Part shown: positions 6,776-18,390 of the stretch, one piece after another
Layout of the letters: every line of letters begins with the position of its first letter
Numbering within the stretch: the stretch's first letter is position 1
Assembly (NCBI GenBank): GCA_043822705.1
Contig: JBDRBK010000029.1
Location: 1-18,390, forward strand
Reading direction: 5' to 3'
DNA: 18,390 nucleotides
DNA from: Fidelibacterota bacterium
GTDB taxonomy: Bacteria > Fidelibacterota > Marinisomatia > Marinisomatales > TCS56
Position numbers and translations under genes: made by a program
The notes under the pieces: model-generated
The model's database searches: none
Seen by the model: only the letters and a program-made list of their open reading frames with translations
Told to the model about the DNA's origin: nothing

Positions 6776-7390
6776 TTACAGGATACTTTTGATCTCGGCG
6801 ATAATCTTCGCCAGCCGCGCTTCGTCGGTAAATATATTGAAGTGATCGGTTTCCAGCGTCAGCACCGGCAGATCTTTAATCCCCTTGATCCAGCGGTCAT
6901 AGGAGATATTCAAGCGGTGCAGGTACTGCGGATCGATGGTTTTTTCATAATCACGGTTACGGCCTTTGATCCGCGTCAAAAGGGTGTCGGTGCCGGCCCG
7001 CAGGTAAACGATCAGGTCCGGTCGGCGCAGGTAGGCCGTCATCACGGCGAACAGGTGGCGGTAGTTATCCCAGTCGCGCTGGTCGATATGGCCCAGTTCG
7101 TGCAGGTTGTTGGCGAAGATTTCCACATCCTCGTAGATCGTCCGGTCCTGGATTACGCCGCCGGTCTCGGCGGCGATTTCCCGCTGGTGGCGGAAGCGGT
7201 GGTGCAGGAAATAGATCTGCAGATTGAAGGCCCAGCGTTGCATGTTGCCGTAAAAATCACTTAAGTAGGGATTATCCGCCACCGATTCGAAGAATGGCTT
7301 CCAGCCCATGCGTTCGGCCACGATTTTGGTGAAGGTCGTCTTGCCGACGCCGATATTTCCGGCGACGCCGACGAAAGGGGTTTTAAGCAT
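6776..7390 (-). CDS. Deoxynucleoside kinase (dNK family)
   Basis: P-loop VAGNIGVGKTT, ESVADNPYL..FY, LQIYFL..RF, DRTIYED, PDLIVYL, RIKGRNRDYE. ATG at 7390 preferred over TTG at 7393. Confidence 0.93.
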   Translation of the reverse strand: MLKTPFVGVAGNIGVGKTTFTKIVAERMGWKPFFESVADNPYLSDFYGNMQRWAFNLQIYFLHHRFRHQREIAAETGGVIQDRTIYEDVEIFANNLHELGHIDQRDWDNYRHLFAVMTAYLRRPDLIVYLRAGTDTLLTRIKGRNRDYEKTIDPQYLHRLNISYDRWIKGIKDLPVLTLETDHFNIFTDEARLAKIIAEIKSIL

Positions 7391-7421
7391 CAAATCTTCC
7401 TAATTGGGCTTAATCTGTGGT

Positions 7422-7489: not shown

Positions 7490-10400
7490 TTAGAAATTAA
7501 ACCGGAAACCCACTAGTACCTGCCAGCGCGATTCGAAGTCCGAAGTGGACAGGACCGACTCCGGGTCATCGAATTGGAAGGTGGGAATACCGGCCGCCGT
7601 GCCGCCGGCGAAGCTCTTATACTTCAGCAATTGGTAGGTTCCAAACGGCATGTACTCTACCTGGCCCCATTCGTTATTGAGCAGGTTGGCGAAATTCAGG
7701 ATGTCCACGGTCAATTCGAAATTCCGCCCCACCGGACTAGCGATTTTCTGGGATATCCGCAGATCGATACGGTTATTCCAGGGTTCACGAGCGGCGTTGC
7801 GTTCGAAGATCTTACCTTTGTATTCGCTGAGGAATTCGTCGTTAGCGACGAATTCTTCCCAGGCGTCCCAGGCGTCGACATTGTTAACATCGACAATATT
7901 GACTTCAGTTTCGTCATCGTAGACGAAGATCAGGTCGTTATCCTTGCTGCCATCGCCGTTATAATCGTAACTGGAGGCGTAGATGTAGGAGTACGGAGAA
8001 CCAGACTTGCCTTCGTAGAATAACGAAACGGTAGTGGGTGCGCCTGGCAGCAGTTCGATCGCTTGATTCAAACTCAGAATCAGGCGGTGCGGAAGCTCAT
8101 ACAGCGAACTGGTCAGTCCCGGGTTGTTGGTGTTCAGGCCGATCGGGCTATAGCGCCAGTTGGATTTGGCCTGGCTGGAGGTCAGGCTGTTAATATCCTT
8201 GGACTGGGAGTAGGTGTAAGCCAGGCTGGCCCGGGTGGCCCCCAGGGCGGTTTTCCAGTTGCCGCTGAGGCTGCCGGTCAGGCTGTATTGATAGCCTTTA
8301 GCGGTATTGGTTACGTACATCACTTCCAGGAAATTGCTGCTTACACCATATTTGGCATAATGGTCGCGGCCGTCGGCCATCGTCAAATCCTTGACGGCGT
8401 TTAGTTGCTTGTAAGTCACCTCGCTCAGGTTTTTACTGTACAGGAACTCGATCCCGGCTTTCAGGTTGAAGGGCAGGTTGTGTTCGACGGCCAGGTTGGT
8501 GCGCAATACCCGCGGGAACATCAAGTCCACATCGACGACATCGATCTCGGACTTCTGGTAACCCAGGTCGGGATCAAGGTAGTGATCGTACTGGTCGTCG
8601 AGATCGGTCAGGATTGCATCGGCACCGCTGTCATAGATCGTTTTCAGTAACACGCCGCTCATGCTGAAGTTATTCGACAGCCAGACGAATTTAGGCGAGC
8701 CCGAGAAGATACCGATGCCACCCCTTAGTAGCGTCTCGTTTTTATCCAGGAGCCGATAGTTGAAACCGAGACGGGGTGAAAAATGCACGTTGCCACTGGG
8801 CATCTGATCGGTTTTGATGTCCTGGTCACCGAAGTACTTGGCCACCGAGTCGTTGGCCAGTGGCGTATCCGGGAAAACCGGAATATCGAACCGGACGCCG
8901 GCCGTCAGCCGCAGCTGGTCGTTTACATCCCAGATATCCTGGGCGTGGAAGCCGTAGATGTTGGCCTTCCATTCCGCCATCGGCTGGGGATCACCATCCA
9001 CGGCCGAGTAGGTCAACTCATAGGTGGCAATATTGCCCTGCTCAAGGTCAGCCACGCTGTCAAACCAGTAGGTCCCATTGTAATTGCGGAAGAACCCGTT
9101 GCTCATGAAGTAAAACTCATTGTGGGTACCGACGGAAAAGGCGTGGTCGCCGGTGTAATAGGACAAATTATTGGAAAGCTGGAAGATATTCTGGTCCAGC
9201 TTATTACCGAGCGAGTACTGCTCGGCGCCGCCATAAATCCGGGTATTACCAGCACCGTAGACGATGAATGTCGGTGATCCGGAATCCTCCGATTCCCGGA
9301 AATCGCGGATCGTGGTATAGCCCAGGGTGAAGGTGTTGGACAGGTTCTTGGACAGGCTGCTGTACAGGTGCAGCATGGTCGAGTTCTGCTTGTGATTGAA
9401 GATATAGCCGGCTTTGGAAAAGTAAAAATTATACGGGCTGCGGGCATTGATATCATCCTTGGCGCTAATGAAATTGTGGCGCAGCGACAGGCGGTGCCGG
9501 TCGTTGATATTGTAATCGATTTTCGCCAGGATTTTGGTACTGGGCGTTTCGGCATCGAATTGCTTACTGCCGCCGGTGGTGGCGCCATAGACATTGGTCA
9601 GGATGCTGTCGACCCGCTGGACTTCCGCGGCGGACCCGGCGAAGGCCTGGGCCGAACTAGTGTCCAGGCTGATCGTATTGGGCGTGATACTCTGGCTTAA
9701 TTCGGCACTCACGAAGTAGTGCAGTTTATCGGGGATGAGTGCTCCGCCCAGCCGCGCCCCATAGACCTTTTCCGAAAATTCGGGGTACTCATTAACCGTA
9801 CCATCGGCTTCTTCGAAAGCACCGATAAAAGCCTCATTGCGCATGGAGGTGTAGACCGATCCTTCGAGTTGGTTGGAGCCGCTGCGGGTGACAGCATTTA
9901 AGGCACCACCGGCAAAACCGCTGTGGCGCACGTCAAAGGGCGCGACCATGACCTGAATTTCTTCGATAGCGTCTAAGCTGACCGGCTGTGTTCCCGCCTG
10001 TCCGCCGGGGAGGCCATTGTCCGCCAACCCGAAGACATCATTCAGTACGGCGCCATCGATCTTGACCGTGTTATAATTGGGATGTTTACCGGCGATCTCG
10101 TTACCATTGACATTGGCCGCCAGCCGGGTCATGTCATAAATGCCACGATTGACATTTGGCATGGCGTCGATCTGAGCGGTCGAAATTGTGGCCGATTGGC
10201 CGGTGCTGGCGCTGCGGGCATCGGCGATTACATCGATACCGGCCATTTGCAACGCTTCTTCCACCAGTTGCAGGTTCAGCTGCAGGTTTTGTCCCAGGGA
10301 TAGCATGATATCTTCGACTACCTCCGGTTTATAACCGATGTAATTAACCGTCAGTGTGTAGGGACCACCGACGCGCAGGTTGGGAATATTAAAATTACCA

Positions 10401-10612
10401 TCGTCGCGGGATATCGATCCGAAGATAATACCACTGGGATTGTGCTTGGCCATGATATTGGCACCGGCCAATGGTTCGTCGTTTTGACTGACAACATTGC
10501 CGCTGATTGAAGCGGTCGTCAGGACTTGCCCGAAGGCCAGGAACGGCAGCGTTAGAACCAGTAAAAACAGTCCCAACTTGTAGGTCTTTCCACAGGTTGT
10601 TAAGCGATTCAT
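7490..10612 (-). CDS. TonB-dependent outer-membrane receptor (Oar-like) with N-terminal carboxypeptidase-regulatory-like domain
   Basis: Start at ATG 10612 (MNRLTT...) with AAGGAG at 10619-10624, then a signal peptide, ISGNVV...EPLAGANI...GNFNIPNLRVGGPYTLTV, plug motifs (IDGAVLNDVFG; VSLDAIEEIQV...FDVRHSGFAGGALNAVTRSGSN) and C-terminal GFRFNF; 1040 aa. Confidence 0.92.
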   Translation of the reverse strand: MNRLTTCGKTYKLGLFLLVLTLPFLAFGQVLTTASISGNVVSQNDEPLAGANIMAKHNPSGIIFGSISRDDGNFNIPNLRVGGPYTLTVNYIGYKPEVVEDIMLSLGQNLQLNLQLVEEALQMAGIDVIADARSASTGQSATISTAQIDAMPNVNRGIYDMTRLAANVNGNEIAGKHPNYNTVKIDGAVLNDVFGLADNGLPGGQAGTQPVSLDAIEEIQVMVAPFDVRHSGFAGGALNAVTRSGSNQLEGSVYTSMRNEAFIGAFEEADGTVNEYPEFSEKVYGARLGGALIPDKLHYFVSAELSQSITPNTISLDTSSAQAFAGSAAEVQRVDSILTNVYGATTGGSKQFDAETPSTKILAKIDYNINDRHRLSLRHNFISAKDDINARSPYNFYFSKAGYIFNHKQNSTMLHLYSSLSKNLSNTFTLGYTTIRDFRESEDSGSPTFIVYGAGNTRIYGGAEQYSLGNKLDQNIFQLSNNLSYYTGDHAFSVGTHNEFYFMSNGFFRNYNGTYWFDSVADLEQGNIATYELTYSAVDGDPQPMAEWKANIYGFHAQDIWDVNDQLRLTAGVRFDIPVFPDTPLANDSVAKYFGDQDIKTDQMPSGNVHFSPRLGFNYRLLDKNETLLRGGIGIFSGSPKFVWLSNNFSMSGVLLKTIYDSGADAILTDLDDQYDHYLDPDLGYQKSEIDVVDVDLMFPRVLRTNLAVEHNLPFNLKAGIEFLYSKNLSEVTYKQLNAVKDLTMADGRDHYAKYGVSSNFLEVMYVTNTAKGYQYSLTGSLSGNWKTALGATRASLAYTYSQSKDINSLTSSQAKSNWRYSPIGLNTNNPGLTSSLYELPHRLILSLNQAIELLPGAPTTVSLFYEGKSGSPYSYIYASSYDYNGDGSKDNDLIFVYDDETEVNIVDVNNVDAWDAWEEFVANDEFLSEYKGKIFERNAAREPWNNRIDLRISQKIASPVGRNFELTVDILNFANLLNNEWGQVEYMPFGTYQLLKYKSFAGGTAAGIPTFQFDDPESVLSTSDFESRWQVLVGFRFNF

Positions 10613-10896
10613 GATAGTCTCCTTTAGATATGATTGATCGCAGGCTGAATTGCCGTGGGGCGAGTAATCGGCGCAGTGATTAGCTGATGGATGCTTGGCA
10701 GAAGGTACATTTGTTTCCCTAATCCGATTATGAAATTCGGATTCTATTGCATACTGAACAACATAAAACATGCTGGGATTGGGCGTTGGCAAGCGGCGTA
10801 AAAAAGGTGAGAAGTCTACTGTTGTGATCGAATTTTCCCGGGGAAAATGAGCCATCTGATTTCACGGGAAGACACTGCCATCGACGGATGTGAACA
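10595..10896. repeat. 302-bp imperfect direct repeat, copy 1 (first codons, RBS and upstream region of the receptor gene)
   Basis: Aligns without gaps to 15110-15411; 26 mismatches by manual count (~91% identity). Confidence 0.95.
10832..10848. promoter_or_regulatory. Perfect inverted repeat ATTTTCCC-G-GGGAAAAT, candidate regulator or recombinase binding site
   Basis: 8-1-8 palindrome, identical in repeat copy 2 at 15347-15363. Function is inferred. Confidence 0.4.
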
Positions 10897-11442
10897 GTGA
10901 GCTAATTAAATATACAGATTACGGTGATTTCCTGATTTTTGAACATATAGCTTAATCCATTCTCGAACATAATGTAAAAGTAATTGATCCGTACAACCTT
11001 CCCTCAGCAAGAGTAATCAACAAACCATTTCAACCAGTAACCTTGAAAACAATTTTGTAAATCCCCATCCAGGAATGGGGGAAATTAAATTTATATATAA
11101 CGGTTGTAATCTCAATTTCATCAATGTGTCGTTGCTCGCGCGCGCGTGCGCGTTCCACAAAACTGCATATTTACTGGAAATTTTTCGATCTCGTGTTATT
11201 TGAATATTAGAGCTAACGCTCAAGTGGCATGTGAATTCATACTTAAAAAATTAGCAATGTGCTAAAAAACCCCTAATTTCTTCTGTGCCAGGAGAAGCAA
11301 GGCCTTTTGGACCTCGCAACTTTATATTGCCTGAAATAATATATAATATACATGTATTATGATTTATAACTTTAAAGAACCGAAGTCAGTCCTATAAGCT
11401 GTTGTAAAATAAGATGCAATCCAAAAATAATTCAAAATTTCC

Positions 11443-11499: not shown

Positions 11500-12342
11500 A
11501 TGGGGTCCGAACAAAACAAAGCGGCTAAAAAAAATCAGATAGTTAAATCTGTGGAAGCGTCTGGCAGTCTAATGAAGGCGGCGCAAGTAAGTGAAATTGG
11601 ACAATCTACGTTGGAAGAATGGCGCCGGAAAGACGAAGAATTCAATGCCACTTTGGAACGCGCGATGAAAAACCACCACGATCGGCAGATTGAAAAGCTA
11701 GCTACGATTGCTGAAAAACTTATCGATGTTGCCGGGGAAGCGCTGGAAGAAAAAAAATATCAGGTAAAAACCACCAGCCGGGAGACAATTTTCAATCGGC
11801 GAGATGAAATTACTGGCTACCGCGAATGGGAGACAGTGAAGGAAAAAATCCGCGAGCCCAATATTTTGGCTGTGCTGAAAATTTTAACAGAAATCAACAA
11901 TTCGTTGCTCGGGCAGTATTCATTCATGTTAAATAATGATCGAACGATCCGGGAACAGTTAGTTGGGCCATCTGGGTCTTCATTTAACACTGACGAAACG
12001 CCGATGTGGATATTAAGTGAAAAAATAGACCTAAATCGTATCCGGTGGATGCAAGCCCAGACCCAGTCGCTTTACGACAAAGGCCTGATTACTGACAATG
12101 AGTACCGCAAGCGTACTATCGAAGAAATCAAGCTGTCGCAGGAAGTACTCAGTCATATCGAAACGCGCACAAAGGCAGAATTTCAGGGCAAGACCCTTTT
12201 TGATGTCCGCAATGACGTGCATGCGATTCTCAACCTACACCATAATCTGATTCGACAAGCGATCGGGAATACTAATGTCAAACGCGAAGGCATTTTTACT
12301 GAATTTCAAAAACTTTTAAAGGAGCATCTAGAAAATGACTAA
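11500..12342 (+). CDS. Putative terminase small subunit-like HTH protein
   Basis: N-terminal HTH-like GSLMKAAQVSEIGQSTLEEWRRKDEEFNATLERA resembles TerS/phBC6A51-type HTHs, followed by a helical/coiled region and a beta-hairpin-like segment ending EPN..A. It lies directly upstream of, and overlaps, the terminase large subunit gene. Confidence 0.65.
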   Translation: MGSEQNKAAKKNQIVKSVEASGSLMKAAQVSEIGQSTLEEWRRKDEEFNATLERAMKNHHDRQIEKLATIAEKLIDVAGEALEEKKYQVKTTSRETIFNRRDEITGYREWETVKEKIREPNILAVLKILTEINNSLLGQYSFMLNNDRTIREQLVGPSGSSFNTDETPMWILSEKIDLNRIRWMQAQTQSLYDKGLITDNEYRKRTIEEIKLSQEVLSHIETRTKAEFQGKTLFDVRNDVHAILNLHHNLIRQAIGNTNVKREGIFTEFQKLLKEHLEND

Positions 12343-14383
12343 AAACTTTGAATACCTGATTAGTGCGGAGAATAATCCCAAAGATCGGATCTGGTGCATC
12401 CAGCCAGTAGGGGCAATAACGTTCATCGAGCAATTTATTGGAACAATGACACTATCCGACCCGCAGAAAGAAGTGATCGGAAGTATTTTTGGTGATGACC
12501 CAACAAATCAATTCTTCCAGGTTGAGCAAGCCATATTACGGATTGGACAGGGTGGCGGAAAGAATTTTCTAATAACTCGGTGTGTCGTGTATTTTATATA
12601 TTTGTGGTGTTGTCTGGAAAATCCACATCGATATTTCAACTTGGCGGAAAACGAGCATTTTGACATTCTAAATTTTTCTCAAGTCAGCGCTCAACAGGCT
12701 AAGAATGTGTTTTTCAAGTCATTAGTCAGTATTTTAAAGCTCACGAAAGATCCACTCAGCGGCAAGAATTGGTTTGAAAGTAAGGCGGGTTTTAAAATTA
12801 AAGCTTATGGCAGGGGTGATATTAAAGACAAGGAATTGATCATTCCAAATCGACGACCGGGATTGGGAAATATTCGAGTATTTTGCCTAGATATGACAGC
12901 CAAGTCTGTTGAGGGATACACAATCTGGGTCTCGATAATGGACGAACCCAGTCGCGCCAACACCCGAGCAAAATATACTGTTGCCAAGCACCAGTATCAG
13001 ACGGCTTATAGCAATCAAAAGACCCGATTCACAAATCCTCATCACCGCTGCACGATAGTATTTGCTTATCCGGAACAAGAATATTTTGATCTCTTGATCG
13101 AGCTATATAATACTTATGCAAAGAATCCCCGTGAAAACAGCTGGGAAATGGAAGCTAACATCCTGACTGCATGGTACGACACCTTTGTTTTTAATGCAAA
13201 AGACCAAGCTGATAAAAAATTGGCCTACGAGATGGCTTATCGCCATGACCCGATTGATGCGGATCGACGGTGGAAGGCAATTGTGCCCCCCAGCATTGAC
13301 AGCTTTTTCACACCGTATGAAAATAAAATTGTCGAATGTGCTAATCCTGACCTAGTTAATCCGATTAAATACCGCGAAACAATTACTAGACGTGTGGAAA
13401 AAGTTAATGGCCGGGACCAATACTGTTCATACACTGCTCTGGAACCGTTGGAAATTCAGGGGGATCACAGGGAACGTTTTTGGGGTGGAGATTTTGCTAT
13501 CAAAAAGGATCGTCTCGTTATTGTTGGTGGTTACGCGACTCGATCATTGCTGGAGATAAACAAATTTACTGATATGAGCAGAACCCCGTCTGGTGTTGAG
13601 GAGGTAAAGGAGCAATTGATTAATTGCCGTCCAATCATTGATACAATTTTGATTTGGGAAGTCAAACCGGGTGGTTATGCGATCGATTACAGTAATGTCG
13701 ATTATTTTCTAACTGAATTGATTAAACATCATTTTTCGGGAACACGGGCAATTCACTTCGACAAATTTAATACGGAAAGTACACGCCAAAAAATTCTCGA
13801 TCGGGTCACTAAAGATTGTGAAAGTCTGAGCTTTACGAATGCGCAGCAGGTATCCTACGGACGACTGGTACGGTACCTGGTCATAAATAACGCGATCGAA
13901 TATCTCGACAATGATTTACTGCAGCAGGAAATGAAACAACTGATCTTCGAAAATCAAACCAAGCTTGATCATCCTCCAGGCGGTTCGAAGGACGTGTGGG
14001 ACGCCTTTAGTATTTGCGTGAATTTGATTATCACGAAAAATCGCTGGAGTTCAGAACCGCGAGTTGATATTGGTGAATCCGATGAATCCGATGCAATTGA
14101 AGACAACTATGACGAAAGAATGCGAATCTTCAATCTGGCTTTCAAGAATTTCGTAAATACACATGGTCGTCAACCAAGGGATGATGAAGAATTACGCGAG
14201 TGGTTGTTTAAAAGTTATAGCACAAAATTCACCCTGCAGGAAGTTCAGTATTTCAAGCAACATCGCAGCGAATGGGAGAGCTCAGGTCGGGGGAAAATGG
14301 CGATGTTGGGTTTAACGTCGCCAAGCAGGAGGACTGGGTGTGAGCTCGATTATTTTTCTGTTGATGATCCCTGGTCCTTTTAA
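12335..14383 (+). CDS. Phage terminase large subunit (ATPase + RNase H-like nuclease) with C-terminal extension
   Basis: Adenine-binding LSDPQ, Walker A-like GQGGGKN, QQAK..FF, EGY, Walker B IWVSIMDE, coupling-motif position FAYP. Nuclease acidic motifs WGGDFAIKKD, IHFDKFN and LDHPPGGSKDVWDA. AAGGAG RBS at 12319-12324; start overlaps the upstream stop. Confidence 0.85.
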   Translation: MTKNFEYLISAENNPKDRIWCIQPVGAITFIEQFIGTMTLSDPQKEVIGSIFGDDPTNQFFQVEQAILRIGQGGGKNFLITRCVVYFIYLWCCLENPHRYFNLAENEHFDILNFSQVSAQQAKNVFFKSLVSILKLTKDPLSGKNWFESKAGFKIKAYGRGDIKDKELIIPNRRPGLGNIRVFCLDMTAKSVEGYTIWVSIMDEPSRANTRAKYTVAKHQYQTAYSNQKTRFTNPHHRCTIVFAYPEQEYFDLLIELYNTYAKNPRENSWEMEANILTAWYDTFVFNAKDQADKKLAYEMAYRHDPIDADRRWKAIVPPSIDSFFTPYENKIVECANPDLVNPIKYRETITRRVEKVNGRDQYCSYTALEPLEIQGDHRERFWGGDFAIKKDRLVIVGGYATRSLLEINKFTDMSRTPSGVEEVKEQLINCRPIIDTILIWEVKPGGYAIDYSNVDYFLTELIKHHFSGTRAIHFDKFNTESTRQKILDRVTKDCESLSFTNAQQVSYGRLVRYLVINNAIEYLDNDLLQQEMKQLIFENQTKLDHPPGGSKDVWDAFSICVNLIITKNRWSSEPRVDIGESDESDAIEDNYDERMRIFNLAFKNFVNTHGRQPRDDEELREWLFKSYSTKFTLQEVQYFKQHRSEWESSGRGKMAMLGLTSPSRRTGCELDYFSVDDPWSF

Positions 14384-14639
14384 ATTTTAGCGTTTTGTAA
14401 TAGTGTTTATAACTTGCTAATACCTGTTGGCCTGCCACAGGATCAGAGAGTTGGTTTTGTTTTTTTATTCGAAGCGAACCGCACGCATAAAATAGGAGTT
14501 GTGGGGCCGTGAATTCTGGTCAGATGGATATTCTGTTGGAACAGTGAGAGGGAGAAGTAATTGAGGATATTTTAGACACCCTGCAGCTTGCCGCCAGCAG
14601 GCAGGGATGGGGTAGTTTGCGAAAATATGGGCACGACGC

Positions 14640-14850
14640 AATAAACCATGACAGTCTTTCTTTACACCGAATCAGTTTACGCAGGACTGTTTATAAATTG
14701 TTCAAGAAGATGGCCCGCATTGATGATTACGAATTATTTATTAATGACTCGGGCGATGTTTTATTGCGGCCAGTAATTGGAATGCCGACTTACGAGAAAT
14801 GGTTGCATGAAACTCCAAATGCAACGCAAGATGGTTTTGCTGAAATAGAT
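14640..14850 (+). pseudogene. Possible decayed small antitoxin/AbrB-like gene fragment
   Basis: Segment HRISL...YELFINDSGDVLLRPVIGMPTYEKWLHETP resembles small 'G-x-I-L-L-x-P...P-x-x-E-x-W' antitoxin-like proteins. No good in-frame start (ATG 14648 is out of frame) and the tail looks non-coding. Boundaries are approximate. Confidence 0.35.
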
Positions 14851-15109
14851 ATGTCTTATAGGATCCCTCACTCCCAAAACCAGGGCTGTCATCCCGGCGG
14901 CCCTGTTTTCTATTGTAGGCCCGGCCAATTGCCGGAACCTCCAATAGCTGGTGCCCCATAGCCGGTGTAGCAATATAGAAAAGGAGGCTTGATCATTCCC
15001 GAGGCTCTGAATAAAGGGATTTTTGTTTACCAAATACATAGGAATTCTATTTACCGAATAGATGGGAAACATCCTTGTTATTTACACCCAAGCGGCGGGC
15101 GGTTCCTAT

Positions 15110-15411
15110 GGTTGTTAAGCGATCCATGATAGTCTCCTTTAGATATGATTAATCGCAGGCTGAATTGCAGAGCGGCAATTAATCGGCGCAGTGATTAGCT
15201 GCTGAACGCTTGGCAGAAGGTACATTTGTTTCCCTAATCCGATTATGAAATTCAGATTCTATTGCATACTGAACAACATAAAACATGATCGGATCGGGCT
15301 GGGGCAAGCGGTGTAAAAAAGGTAAGAAGTCTACTGCTATGATCGAATTTTCCCGGGGAAAATGAGCCATCTGATTTAACGGGAATACAGTGCCATCGGC
15401 GGACGTGAACA
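15110..15411. repeat. 302-bp imperfect direct repeat, copy 2
   Basis: See copy 1. Retains AAGGAG and ATG (15127, minus strand) but is followed by unrelated sequence after MDRLTT. Confidence 0.95.
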
Positions 15412-15854: not shown

Positions 15855-15911
15855 TGTAATATTGTTTGCATAAACCTGAGATATATGACATATTCCGTAA
15901 ACGATATTACA
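15855..15911 (+). promoter_or_regulatory. Candidate abiE promoter with inverted-repeat operator
   Basis: Arms TGTAATATTGTTTGC (15855-15869) and GTAAACGATATTACA (15897-15911) match at 13/15. TTGCAT-17 bp-CATATT with an upstream TG overlaps the left arm and the spacer. Confidence 0.55.
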
Positions 15912-15917
15912 GGATTC

Positions 15918-16691
15918 ATGAAGCCAATCGATTACATAAGAGAGTTAAATAATAGCGGTATTTGGAGTTTTACTTTCGAAGAGGCACAAAGTAGCTTGGG
16001 AAAGGATATCACTGCCGCGATCAGGACATTGCGTAAAAAGAACCGGATAATTGATCCAGCCAGGGGATTCTACGTAATTATTCCGGAAGAATTTAGTATT
16101 GCAGGTCGTCTGCCTGCAGAACGTTTCATAAATGAATTAATGAAGTTTTACAGGGCACCCTATTATATAGGATTACTGACCGCGGCCTCTTTTTATGGAT
16201 CAGCTCATCAAAGTCCGCAAGTGTTTCAAGTAGTCACCAATCCTTCCAGAAGAACCATTCATTATGGTCAGAATAAGATAGTATTCTACCGGAAGAAGAA
16301 TGTGGATTCAATACTAACGGATAAGCGTAAGACCCTGACCGGATATGTGAACATCTCTACCGTTGAAACCACATTTTTTGATATGATACAGTTTAACCAG
16401 AGGATTGGCGGTTTGGACCATGTTACATTAGTTGCATCCGAATTGGTCGAACGGTTTTCTGTGTCTAGTTTAAAGGAAGTAGCCATGACTTTCCCGCTGC
16501 CCATTATTCAACGGGGAGGTTATCTCCTTGAGGTTATTGGTTTTGAAAAGGGAACAGCCGTATTAGAACGTTGGATTCGAAATCAATGTCCCATTTATAC
16601 CTACTTAAATCCTTCTAAGGGTAAGCTTAGAGAACCAAAGCACGATCGCTGGAAGTTGATCATAAACGATAAACTAGATTATTCAGAGTGA
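15918..16691 (+). CDS. Type IV toxin-antitoxin system AbiEi-family antitoxin
   Basis: FTFEEA...RGFYVIIPEE, YYIGLLTAASFYGSAHQSPQVFQV, ISTVETTFFD...GGLD, QRGGYLLE and RWKLIIN are typical AbiEi-family motifs. Start placed at ATG 15918 (AGGA upstream); alternative ATG at 15885. Confidence 0.88.
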   Translation: MKPIDYIRELNNSGIWSFTFEEAQSSLGKDITAAIRTLRKKNRIIDPARGFYVIIPEEFSIAGRLPAERFINELMKFYRAPYYIGLLTAASFYGSAHQSPQVFQVVTNPSRRTIHYGQNKIVFYRKKNVDSILTDKRKTLTGYVNISTVETTFFDMIQFNQRIGGLDHVTLVASELVERFSVSSLKEVAMTFPLPIIQRGGYLLEVIGFEKGTAVLERWIRNQCPIYTYLNPSKGKLREPKHDRWKLIINDKLDYSE

Positions 16692-17181
16692 TTCCACAGG
16701 CATTCATAACAGAATGGCAAAATATTGCCCCCTGGCAACGTGACGTTCAGATCGAGCAGGATTTGATCATTAGCCGAATGTTGGTAGAAATCTATGGTAA
16801 TGAATTTCTACGGGATCAGCTGTTATTCAGAGGTGGTACCGCTTTGTACAAGCTATTCTTCAAGAAGCCTCTTCGATACTCCGAAGATCTCGATTTTGTC
16901 CAATTAAATGCCGGCCCGATCAAGCCAGTTGTAAAGGCCATTCAACAACTAATAGATCCATGGCTAGGGAAAAGCAGCACGGAACCAAGGAAAGATGGTT
17001 TTAGAATTTATTATCGCTTTCAAGCTGAGTCGGATCCGGAGCAGACTGCCAAGATTAAGGTGGAAATCAATACACGGGAACATTTTATGGTATTCCCCAA
17101 TGAGGAGATCAAATATGACGTTGATTCTCAGTGGAATAAGGGTAATAGCTTAATAATGACTTACCCAATTGACGAATTAGC
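16688..17181 (+). pseudogene. AbiEii/AbiGii-family nucleotidyltransferase toxin, interrupted by IS3-family element
   Basis: MIPQAFITEW...PW...QIEQDLIISR, LLFRGGTALYK, RYSEDLDF, KIKVEINTRE. Similarity ends at YPIDELA where the IS end begins (17182); read-through stop at 17212 lies inside the IS. Confidence 0.88.
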
Positions 17182-17216
17182 TGATCTTGCAACAAAAAAA
17201 CGGACAGTATGAGAAG

Positions 17217-18089
17217 TCATACAGCTTGTTTGTAAGTTAATTGTTCAAATTGTTCCGGGGATTTGTATCCCAAGGCCGAGTGTTTCCTGAACCGATTGTA
17301 AAATACTTCCATGTATTCAAACAGGCTGGTTTTCGCCTGCGATCTGGTATGGTATGTCTGATGGTAAACCAGTTCGGTTTTTAACGTATGGAAAAAGCTC
17401 TCGGCTACTGCATTATCATAGCAGTTTCCTTTACCACTCATACTCCCGATTACTTTGAAAGTATTCAGCAAACCACGGAAGTCATCACAAGCATACTGGA
17501 CGCCACGATCCGAATGAAAGATGAGACCCGGTAATGGTTGGTAGCGTTTAACTGCCTGGATGAAGGCTGGGATAGTTGTCTTCTTCGCCGTCAGGCGGTC
17601 GCTCATGGACCAACCAACTATTTTCCGGCTGTAAAGATCCAGAATAATAGTCAGGTACAACCAGCCTTCCATGGTTCTGATATATGTAATGTCAGATACC
17701 CAGATCCGGTGGGCTGAGGTAGTCCAAAAATCCTGATTCAGTAGATTAAATGCTATCGGGTAAGAATGATCTGAGTTGGTTGTTACCTTGTACTTTTTCT
17801 TCGTCTTGGCTTCGATTCCGTTCGCTCTCATGAGTCTGGCTACTCTGGGACGGCTGCAAAAATATCCCATATCATGCAGGTCATCGGTAATCCGAGGACT
17901 ACCATAAGTACGATAACTGCGCTCATGAATATTCTTTATCTTTTTAATCAACAACCTATTCTCTGAACATTGTTTGCTATCCGGCCGATCCAGCCAATCA
18001 TAATATCCGCTCCGACTTACTTTCAATACCTGGCACATTTTCCCCACCGTAAATGCGGAGCAATGTGTTCTGACAAACACGTACTTCAT
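17217..18089 (-). CDS. IS3-family transposase OrfB (DDE integrase core)
   Basis: VSRSGYYDW, YGSPRI, WVSDITYI (D), DLYSRKIVGW, FHSDRGVQY (D), GNCYDNAVAESFFHTLKTE (E), YN..R.HSALGYKSP. Confidence 0.95.
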   Translation of the reverse strand: MKYVFVRTHCSAFTVGKMCQVLKVSRSGYYDWLDRPDSKQCSENRLLIKKIKNIHERSYRTYGSPRITDDLHDMGYFCSRPRVARLMRANGIEAKTKKKYKVTTNSDHSYPIAFNLLNQDFWTTSAHRIWVSDITYIRTMEGWLYLTIILDLYSRKIVGWSMSDRLTAKKTTIPAFIQAVKRYQPLPGLIFHSDRGVQYACDDFRGLLNTFKVIGSMSGKGNCYDNAVAESFFHTLKTELVYHQTYHTRSQAKTSLFEYMEVFYNRFRKHSALGYKSPEQFEQLTYKQAV

Positions 18090-18390
18090 CGGCGTGTTTT
18101 TCCCGCCTGACTGTCGGGCCGGGAGAAAATGGCCAAGGCTTTTTTTAATATGTCGCGCTCTTCCTGTAAAGATCTGTTCTCACGTTCCAACCGGCGTATC
18201 TTATCTTGATCGGGATCACTTAAATATCCGGAACCAGGAAAAGCATTTTCTTTATTCGCTTTGTATGCGCTCTTCCAGCGGTACAACAGTTCCGGGCGGA
18301 TACCTAAATCTCCAGCAATTTCTACCATCGCTTTGGAACTATGTAAAGCAAATTCAATAGACTCCGTTTTAAACTCCTTCGTGAAACGTC
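18086..18390 (-). CDS. IS3-family transposase OrfA (HTH), 5' partial
   Basis: Frame is open to the window edge: RFTKEFKTESIE...EIAGDLGIRPELLYRW...LERENRSLQEERDILKKA. Stop overlaps the orfB ATG (ATGA). Confidence 0.92.
   Translation of the reverse strand, partial: RFTKEFKTESIEFALHSSKAMVEIAGDLGIRPELLYRWKSAYKANKENAFPGSGYLSDPDQDKIRRLERENRSLQEERDILKKALAIFSRPDSQAGKTRR
18139..18146 (-). other. Programmed -1 frameshift motif A AAA AAA G of IS3 orfA/orfB
   Basis: Minus strand TTA AAA AAA GCC. The -1 frame is open into orfB (KSLGHFLPARQSGGKNTPMKY), and a GC-rich potential stem (TCCCGGCCCGACAGTCAGGCGGGA) follows. Confidence 0.75.

Follow-up and report, generated by a model that had tools for sequence, protein, structure and literature searches.

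Satellites that exploit phage packaging are known with a small terminase subunit (TerS) alone, as in the phage-inducible chromosomal islands (PICIs), or with a whole head kit, as in the capsid-forming cf-PICIs (PMC10085698). A selected grade with only TerS and the large subunit (TerL) has been noted once, as an enigma, in the element NitKor-E1 of Ca. Nitrosopumilus koreensis AR1, where terS-terL was considered enigmatic and probably a relic (PMC6563490); the literature searched describes neither a terS-terL-only system nor the locus that we report. This locus lies on an 18,390-nt contig (JBDRBK010000029.1, our contig C29), analysed whole and hereafter called the window, of a Fidelibacterota bacterium (GCA_043822705.1, hereafter G000; 3.34 Mb in 218 contigs, 93% complete, 6% contaminated). 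It consists of a terS-terL pair preceded by a non-coding arm, together called the cassette. The pair is not a one-off relic: it is conserved at one site in related bacteria and evolves under purifying selection, and the cassette probably borrows the shells of an infecting phage or interferes with that phage.

As in NitKor-E1, a terS directly upstream of terL supplies the only tailed-virus genes, without any other virion gene, and stands next to a toxin-antitoxin locus (PMC6563490). NitKor-E1, however, is a single archaeal element with a tyrosine integrase, whereas here the host is a bacterium, no such integrase is visible, and both recurrence and purifying selection were found. PICIs, and among them the Staphylococcus aureus pathogenicity islands (SaPIs), have a TerS of their own that could redirect helper packaging, and package islands in place, as we propose here (PMC10085698, PMC12829572). 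They use the TerL of their helper, however, and carry an integrase, regulators and a primase-replicase, whereas the cassette has an intact terL and none of those genes was seen to its left or within 4.0 kb to its right in G000 (4.6 kb in a second carrier, G006), the right end being unassembled. As for att-type repeats, a 13-bp junction word of four relatives had no second copy in the stretches searched, and a 302-bp repeat in the window is a promoter duplication. cf-PICIs do encode a TerL, as here, but they also encode head genes and head-tail adaptors (PMC10085698), none of which was found beside the cassette terL. The locus also differs from gene transfer agents of the Rhodobacter capsulatus type: no portal of the families searched was found in G000, G006 or G008, a PF05065 capsid occurs in G000 only, and in place of vertical presence we find the gene in three of nine family genomes and five of 401 phylum genomes. 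PICI-like elements (PLEs) reportedly interfere with packaging, and would thereby act on the same step of the phage cycle. TERi of Listeria acts on phage packaging as well, but is a small dedicated terminase inhibitor, unlike the full second terminase seen here (10.1101/2025.02.27.640495).

The cassette comprises the following features.

11500..12342, + strand: terminase small subunit (TerS), 280 aa; N-terminal helix-turn-helix, helical body; matches PHROG 1482 and 4044; fold match; homologue directly upstream of terL in related loci
12335..14383, + strand: terminase large subunit (TerL), 682 aa; ATPase plus nuclease domain, catalytic motifs intact; precomputed Pfam PF27249
10907..11499, + strand: non-coding left arm; candidate promoter/pac region, a putative function
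11141..11155, + strand: 15-bp motif CGCG(C/T)GTGCGCGTTC; candidate recognition site, its only exact match in G000

A reading made from the letters of the window alone (the sequence-only reading) had described a stand-alone, intact terminase pair with its catalytic motifs kept, and this description holds. Both open reading frames (ORFs) are open and overlap by 8 nt. TerL retains the Q motif (Q44), Walker A (G71-N77, GQGGGKN), Walker B (D203-E204) and the C-terminal nuclease acids D386, D476, D553 and D556 that characterize caudoviral large terminases; across 46 homologues each of these positions is either invariant or conserved to 90% or more; 52 homologues were recovered out of 4444 candidates, and 65 of the 66 columns conserved in 27 portal-linked TerLs are kept. 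Its AlphaFold model (mean pLDDT, the predicted local distance difference test, of 85) finds its best match among solved large terminases in HK97 TerL (E 2.9e-13). TerS, with a helix-turn-helix at the N terminus and the position directly upstream of terL that are usual for caudoviral small terminases, matches two PHROG small-terminase families (E 1.7e-7 and 2.7e-6), and the best viral structural match of its model is a TerS (E 2.5e-5). A homologue search returned only TerS itself among 1217 candidates, and its relatives were taken from loci adjoining terL. We regard the two frames as small and large terminase subunits with predicted ATPase, nuclease and packaging functions. Weak Pfam matches on TerL (E 0.03-0.06, far below the cut-off) were dismissed as chance.

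Comparisons drew on nine genomes of the host family (G000-G008), 401 of the phylum and 166 of the Melioribacter family; the TerL alignment picked out 16 loci from species genomes and another 35 from IMG/VR, and 80 of 497 metagenome loci were kept; trees were built with FastTree from 58 and 32 of 103 sequences (plus 2 later), with Shimodaira-Hasegawa-like (SH-like) support values. The two TerLs closest to that of the window are chromosomal, so that the pair is neither a one-off remnant nor one whose nearest homologues all lie in phages. They belong to two other genera of the host family, L001 in G006 (63-64% identical) and L004 in G008 (71% over 191 aa), and all three sequences group in a single clade (SH-like 100) whose sisters are portal-linked phage TerLs. 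The site is defined by two host genes.

6776..7393, - strand: deoxynucleoside kinase gene (dNK); Pfam dNK, E 2.7e-56; host marker defining the site in relatives
7490..10612, - strand: TonB-dependent outer-membrane receptor; Pfam OMP_b-brl_4, CarboxypepD_reg and TonB; host gene, left border

In both L001 and L004 the pair faces away from a TonB-receptor gene, and in G006 this receptor adjoins dNK, as in the window; from receptor orthology, we infer that the G008 pair lies at the same chromosomal site. Orthologues of dNK (77-79%) adjoin the receptor gene in G002, G004, G005 and G006, and none was found in G001, G003 or G007. TerL is present in three of the nine family genomes (G000, G006, G008) and the pair was not found in the other six, including G002, G004 and G005, in which different DNA occupies the site: directly after the receptor, G002 and G004 have what we take, from the sequences, to be a winged-helix gene and a polysaccharide locus of cpsB-SLBB-wzc type, and in G005 a seven-gene block and hipBA stand between receptor and polysaccharide locus.

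The arm is shared as well. Between G000 and G008 it aligns over about 590 bp (z 7.0; 0 of 200 shuffles reach the score), between G008 and G006 it aligns in part (z 3.8), and between G000 and G006 the alignment is not significant (z 1.0); no similarity was found to two empty sites or to two phage terS upstream regions. The 15-bp motif occurs in all three carriers and, among 31 other terS loci, has an exact match upstream of terS in two only, L001 and L004. In G006 a 333-aa gene, to which the Atlas assigns no family, separates motif and terS. Where the flanks had been called non-coding or decayed, the left one is indeed non-coding, but it is not decayed, being conserved with G008.

Ratios of nonsynonymous to synonymous change (dN/dS), by Nei-Gojobori counting, speak for constraint on both genes. 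Between G006 and G008 dN/dS is 0.071 for terL (95% interval 0.038-0.119, 191 codons) and 0.217 for terS (0.147-0.305, 288 codons), at dS 0.88, and both values fall inside the range of phage controls (terL 0.056-0.128 in seven of eight pairs, one being saturated; terS 0.115-0.263 in four pairs). Between the window and G006, pN is 0.22 at a pS of 0.77, synonymous sites being saturated. Divergence in place, to which the shared site and arm point, would mean that selection acted in the absence of a portal gene; divergence in a mobile element followed by separate arrivals would mean that it did not. The comparative predictions of the sequence-only reading, namely recurrence without a portal, a distinct orphan TerL clade, selection behind the intact motifs, toxin-antitoxin neighbours and a lack of cognate head genes in searches of the genome, were thus borne out, and its interpretation is partly supported. 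What does not stand is the word domesticated, if it means a vertically fixed host gene: the pair was not found in six of the nine family genomes, the right end of the island is unassembled, and GC content at third codon positions (GC3) is 0.43 and 0.47 where the genome median is 0.65, which places the two genes among the lowest 4% and 7% of the 1766 long ORFs. Low GC3 and patchy presence argue against old vertical residence. Along the window, GC passes from about 0.55-0.60 in host genes to 0.32-0.46 from about 10.7 kb onward.

The origin of the pair is indicated by its viral relatives. Among 84 nearer loci (window included, duplicates kept), 40 have a portal gene 23-8566 bp downstream of terL and 44 do not, mostly because sequence is lacking there; among viral loci above 40% TerL identity, a portal is visible in 14 of 17. 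The complete phage G063 (101.5 kb, TerL 56% identical) is a myovirus with portal, MuF-like minor head protein, protease, capsid, sheath, baseplate and SbcCD, and no integrase was recognised among 69 of its proteins scanned; the capsid of the cognate phages is of type phrog_752. Since a portal follows terL in the related viruses, and a relative is a myovirus, the pair is phage-derived, and its TerL family is that of ~100-kb myoviruses in which the portal gene normally follows. The packaging module of G063 shares with the cassette the terS-terL order, the overlap and all catalytic motifs, but it continues into head and tail genes, as the cassette does not, and its terS upstream region is unlike the arm. 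We suspect, without putting it at even chances, that arm, terS and terL were taken once from a ~100-kb myovirus of Fibrobacteres-Chlorobi-Bacteroidetes (FCB) group bacteria. Within the same family, the phage TerLs P0009, P0011 and P0031 carry inteins and HNH inserts, and P0200 and P0201 are identical TerLs encoded on 30-32 kb contigs.

From the receptor gene to the insertion sequence (IS) at the right end of the window, ORF, Pfam and PHROG scans detected neither portal, capsid or tail genes nor a phage integrase or a replication gene, in agreement with the sequence-only reading, and the next intact gene is abiEi. Given that related phages place the portal up to 8566 bp after terL, the 4.0 kb downstream cannot alone exclude one, and the absence rests on genome-wide searches instead. 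These covered some of the portal and capsid families, namely a cognate portal profile, PF04860, PF05133 and the capsid family PF05065. The cognate profile matched none of the nine family genomes (positive control 4/5), PF04860 none of five and PF05133 none of nine. Searches of G000 with 196 proteins of two cognate phages, and with profiles for portal, for MuF and for four more phage clusters, retrieved no structural gene, and phage-type SbcC was not found in five family genomes including G000, G006 and G008. A phrog_752 capsid search gave 0/5 genomes with a silent positive control and is not used as evidence. There is thus no sign of an intact prophage, as no cognate portal, capsid or tail gene was found at the locus or elsewhere in G000 (93% complete, 218 contigs).

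One HK97-type capsid was found by PF05065, in G000 only, on the 3.6-kb contig C120 (L194), next to a second ORF that is presumably head-tail-connector-like; its portal is missing. The pair might then be one piece of a dispersed gene-transfer-agent kit, with portal and capsid genes elsewhere in the chromosome. We consider this very improbable: the C120 capsid is not of the cognate phrog_752 type, its occurrence in G000 only (it was not found in G006, G008, G406 or G466) argues against a shared kit, no portal of the three kinds was found, and the pair was not found in six of nine family genomes. C120 looks instead like a prophage piece unrelated to the terminase studied here, and its head genes without a portal indicate that the G000 bin loses parts of prophages.

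Portal-less copies of this TerL family arose separately in other chromosomes; they lie on separate tree branches, mostly beside portal-linked rows. Three occur in satellite-like elements. In the element L002:3030-13484, which holds a second copy within G006, terS-terL is accompanied by a sigma-54 AAA protein, Rep, DnaB, a second, unrelated TerS, an excisionase, a methylase and an integrase, with no head genes in 13.5 kb. In the Bacteroidetes genome G407, an integrase, a primase, terS-terL and four unknown genes lie between host genes on L016:3520-10178 and L008:1-5113, which we infer to be two halves of one element on two contigs; no overlap between the contigs and no portal in G407 were found. 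In the third, L173 (G406, TerL truncated at 376 aa) and L182 (G466, TerL intact, with a TerS-like ORF upstream) stand with a recombinase, SbcD, SbcC and a TPR protein; the gene before sbcD is also present in 5 of 166 Melioribacter family genomes without TerL. The cleanest orphan is L013:9308-11947 in G406, a Melioribacter genome on a single 4.69-Mb contig, where an intact TerL and an unassigned 179-aa ORF lie inside a polysaccharide cluster and no portal was found by two profiles. L005, with an internal deletion, and L137, with a tail gene adjoining the pair, look like relics. Control counts over the two larger samples gave, for the phylum, five genomes with TerL and no portal, one with portal and no TerL and none with both (401 genomes) and, for the Melioribacter family, four with TerL and no portal and none with portal and no TerL (166 genomes); prophage-type copies with a portal also occur in binned genomes (L006, L007, L009-L012). 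The element of L173 and L182, about 10 kb long (L173:2747-11618, L180:18766 to L182:11309), lies near the same M28 peptidase gene in both genomes with a different order of modules, and recombinase and zinc-ribbon domains were detected in its recombinase.

These elements also lend weight to a different account, in which the cassette is the left border of something larger, a satellite or a defective prophage, with its remaining genes in assembly gaps or recently lost; selection would then have been earned in a mobile element, and the pair would have little effect today. None of the three carriers has the right end assembled (G000 stops at the IS and the contig end, G006 has a gap from L001 to L149, and in G008 the contig ends inside terL), and no overlap joins L001 to L149 or the right end of the window to another contig. 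Elsewhere, copies are found in elements that carry an integrase or a recombinase, two copies are damaged, the GC3 of the pair is low, the G000 bin drops prophage pieces such as C120, and the NitKor-E1 pair was read as a likely relic (PMC6563490). We nevertheless hold this account to be unlikely, if well worth keeping in mind. In all three carriers a homologous arm opens the cassette immediately after the receptor promoter, and where sequence is visible beyond the pair (4.0 and 4.6 kb) the genes that follow differ and are not phage genes, so that three parallel deletions to the same two genes would be needed; neither the cognate portal nor phage-type SbcC was found in any of the three carriers, nor any cognate structural gene in G000; the intact TerL of G406 stands inside a polysaccharide cluster of a single-contig genome in which two profiles found no portal; and IMG/VR yielded no member of the G006 type.

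Lacking a portal, a terminase cannot package alone, hence selection on the pair must come from the heads of another virus, from interference with such a virus, or from the nuclease. We tentatively favor the use of helper heads, as both subunits and all catalytic residues are kept, sister copies are satellite-like, the cis-acting arm is conserved, and receptor alleles at the site have been swapped. The last point rests on several signs of exchange. The start of the G008 receptor is 94% identical to that of another genus (G002) and 83% to that of its own (G005); the G000 receptor is not orthologous to the receptor at this site in relatives but belongs to another family, indicating a swap; and its promoter is duplicated.

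10595..10896, - strand: direct repeat, copy A; promoter region of the receptor with its first six codons; 276/302 positions identical to copy B, no gaps
15110..15411, - strand: direct repeat copy B; duplicated receptor promoter plus six codons, no receptor gene behind it

This 302-bp direct repeat (91%), missed by the sequence-only reading, has its copies 4515 bp apart and brackets the terminase pair, so that in G000 the cassette sits between two copies of the receptor promoter.

Under the helper-head reading, which we put forward as possible rather than probable, the cassette would be a packaging parasite reduced to a minimum, loading its own DNA together with the downstream island into the heads of a helper phage. 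It would occupy a variable site ahead of a toxin-antitoxin/exopolysaccharide island; upon infection by a phage of the same family, the cassette TerS would bind its own pac site in or before terS, and the cassette TerL would cut there and dock on the portal of the helper. Pairing between TerS and TerL is specific, which may be why the cassette keeps a TerL of its own. Chromosomal DNA would then be packaged by headful in the terS-to-terL direction, into the island, and would settle in recipients by homologous recombination, which would make an integrase unnecessary; helper heads wasted in this way would incidentally protect the population. Such a course has a precedent in lateral transduction, which moves chromosomal defence islands downstream of phage or PICI sites (PMC12829572). 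A broader generalization, that FCB bacteria have repeatedly drawn two-gene, integrase-free and capsid-free cassettes from one myovirus family, which from a fixed start load variable islands of surface-polysaccharide and defence genes into ~100-kb heads and drain the helper burst, seems to us rather doubtful at present. If the cassette packages chromosomal DNA, it would offer a route for swapping integrase-free defence and capsule islands; and in metagenome bins a terL gene should in any case not be taken as a sure sign that a virus or prophage is there.

Several observations weigh against the parasite reading. DNA to the left of pac would not be packaged, and left-hand recombination would have to rely on the short arm or the promoter. 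The 15-bp motif has no exact match in the phages G063 and G064, and the pac site remains a candidate. The G008 contig (2.7 kb) may have been placed in the wrong bin, in which case the sign of exchange between genera would disappear, and the link to exopolysaccharide genes in G000, G006 and G008 is extrapolated from G002, G004 and G005. Beside hipBA, G008 has a gene, presumably adjacent to terL, with a homologue in phage G063 (28%, E 7e-24), which suggests that more phage DNA was once at or near the site and speaks also for the larger element. Two portal-less copies are damaged (L005 by internal deletion, L173 by truncation). The excess of TerL over portal is modest, as the three copies at the site count as one event and several TerL-only matches lie on short contigs. 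Finally, orientation toward a polysaccharide locus is not general: the terminase lies inside one in L013, points away in G466, and has none in L002 or L008.

The neighbourhood allows still another function, host defence or addiction, in which the pair would poison the motor of an incoming phage through mixed TerS/TerL or TerL/portal assemblies and mis-cut DNA, or in which a TerS-restrained nuclease would be released upon infection or gene loss. Patchy presence, as seen here, is typical of defence genes. The toxin-antitoxin neighbours noted by the sequence-only reading recur at several loci: AbiE in the window, a 118-aa ORF followed by an XRE-IrrE regulator, AbiEii, Phd and Fic downstream of terL in G006 (L001), HipBA at this site of G005, BrnT beside terL in G466 and PDC-S31 at L005. 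TerS is able to restrain the nuclease of TerL in vitro, as reported for P74-26 (10.1101/851345) and, without ATP, for T4 (PMC9958956), and terminase is already a known target, that of TERi (10.1101/2025.02.27.640495). The same T4 work, however, has TerS stimulating the nuclease in vivo and with ATP (PMC9958956). Moreover, no PADLOC (2023) family matches either protein, the 65 of 66 conserved columns kept leave no dominant-negative change, and toxin-antitoxin genes also crowd the site in relatives without the pair. On this balance we think that a dedicated defence role is improbable, although far from negligible; were the pair to block phages, the phage's own motor would have been made into a defence. 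Such a role is compatible with the use of helper heads, the two not being mutually exclusive.

The receptor probably starts at 10612 (MNRLTT), given the MNRL/MKRL starts in L001, L004 and L141, although the ORF caller extends it to 10855. To the right of the pair, the window contains the following features.

14384..15109, no strand: spacer in which no gene is recognisable; hairpin resembling a terminator at 14881-14905, hairpin count not above shuffles
15885..16691, + strand: AbiEi antitoxin, intact; Pfam AbiEi_1, E 7e-28; PADLOC AbiEi, E 1.2e-75
16688..17212, + strand: AbiEii nucleotidyltransferase toxin, cut by the IS; matches positions 1-169 of a 260-position PADLOC model
17182..18390, - strand: IS3-family insertion sequence; rve and HTH_21 domains; reaches the contig end

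The spacer has no Pfam, PHROG or Atlas match and is not conserved with G006; a short ORF remnant within it (14710-14961), likewise without support from these three sources, resembles what we take to be an AbrB-type antitoxin. No second abiEii match was found in G000 with the window abiEii as query, an Rfam scan of the window gave no match, and promoter-like sites in the window are not above shuffles (16 vs 13.1). Four sequencing runs contain 6-7% of the words looked for. Short near-identical pieces of terL or of the arm occur in X1, X2 and X3, X4 has a ~92% relative of the receptor region in which the pair is not covered, and no contig spans or skips the cassette.

In G006, L149:833-9483 carries dense small genes (presumably nucleotidyltransferase/HEPN-like, PIN-like and four-helix-bundle proteins) interleaved with polysaccharide export genes. 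In G004, dNK is duplicated (L143:1645-5258), the second copy being fused in frame to a long ORF (951 aa). In G000, the end of the IS is found also on contigs C156, C198 and C39, and integrase, excisionase-like and replication-like genes at the end of contig C30 (30085-36592) mark another integrated element.

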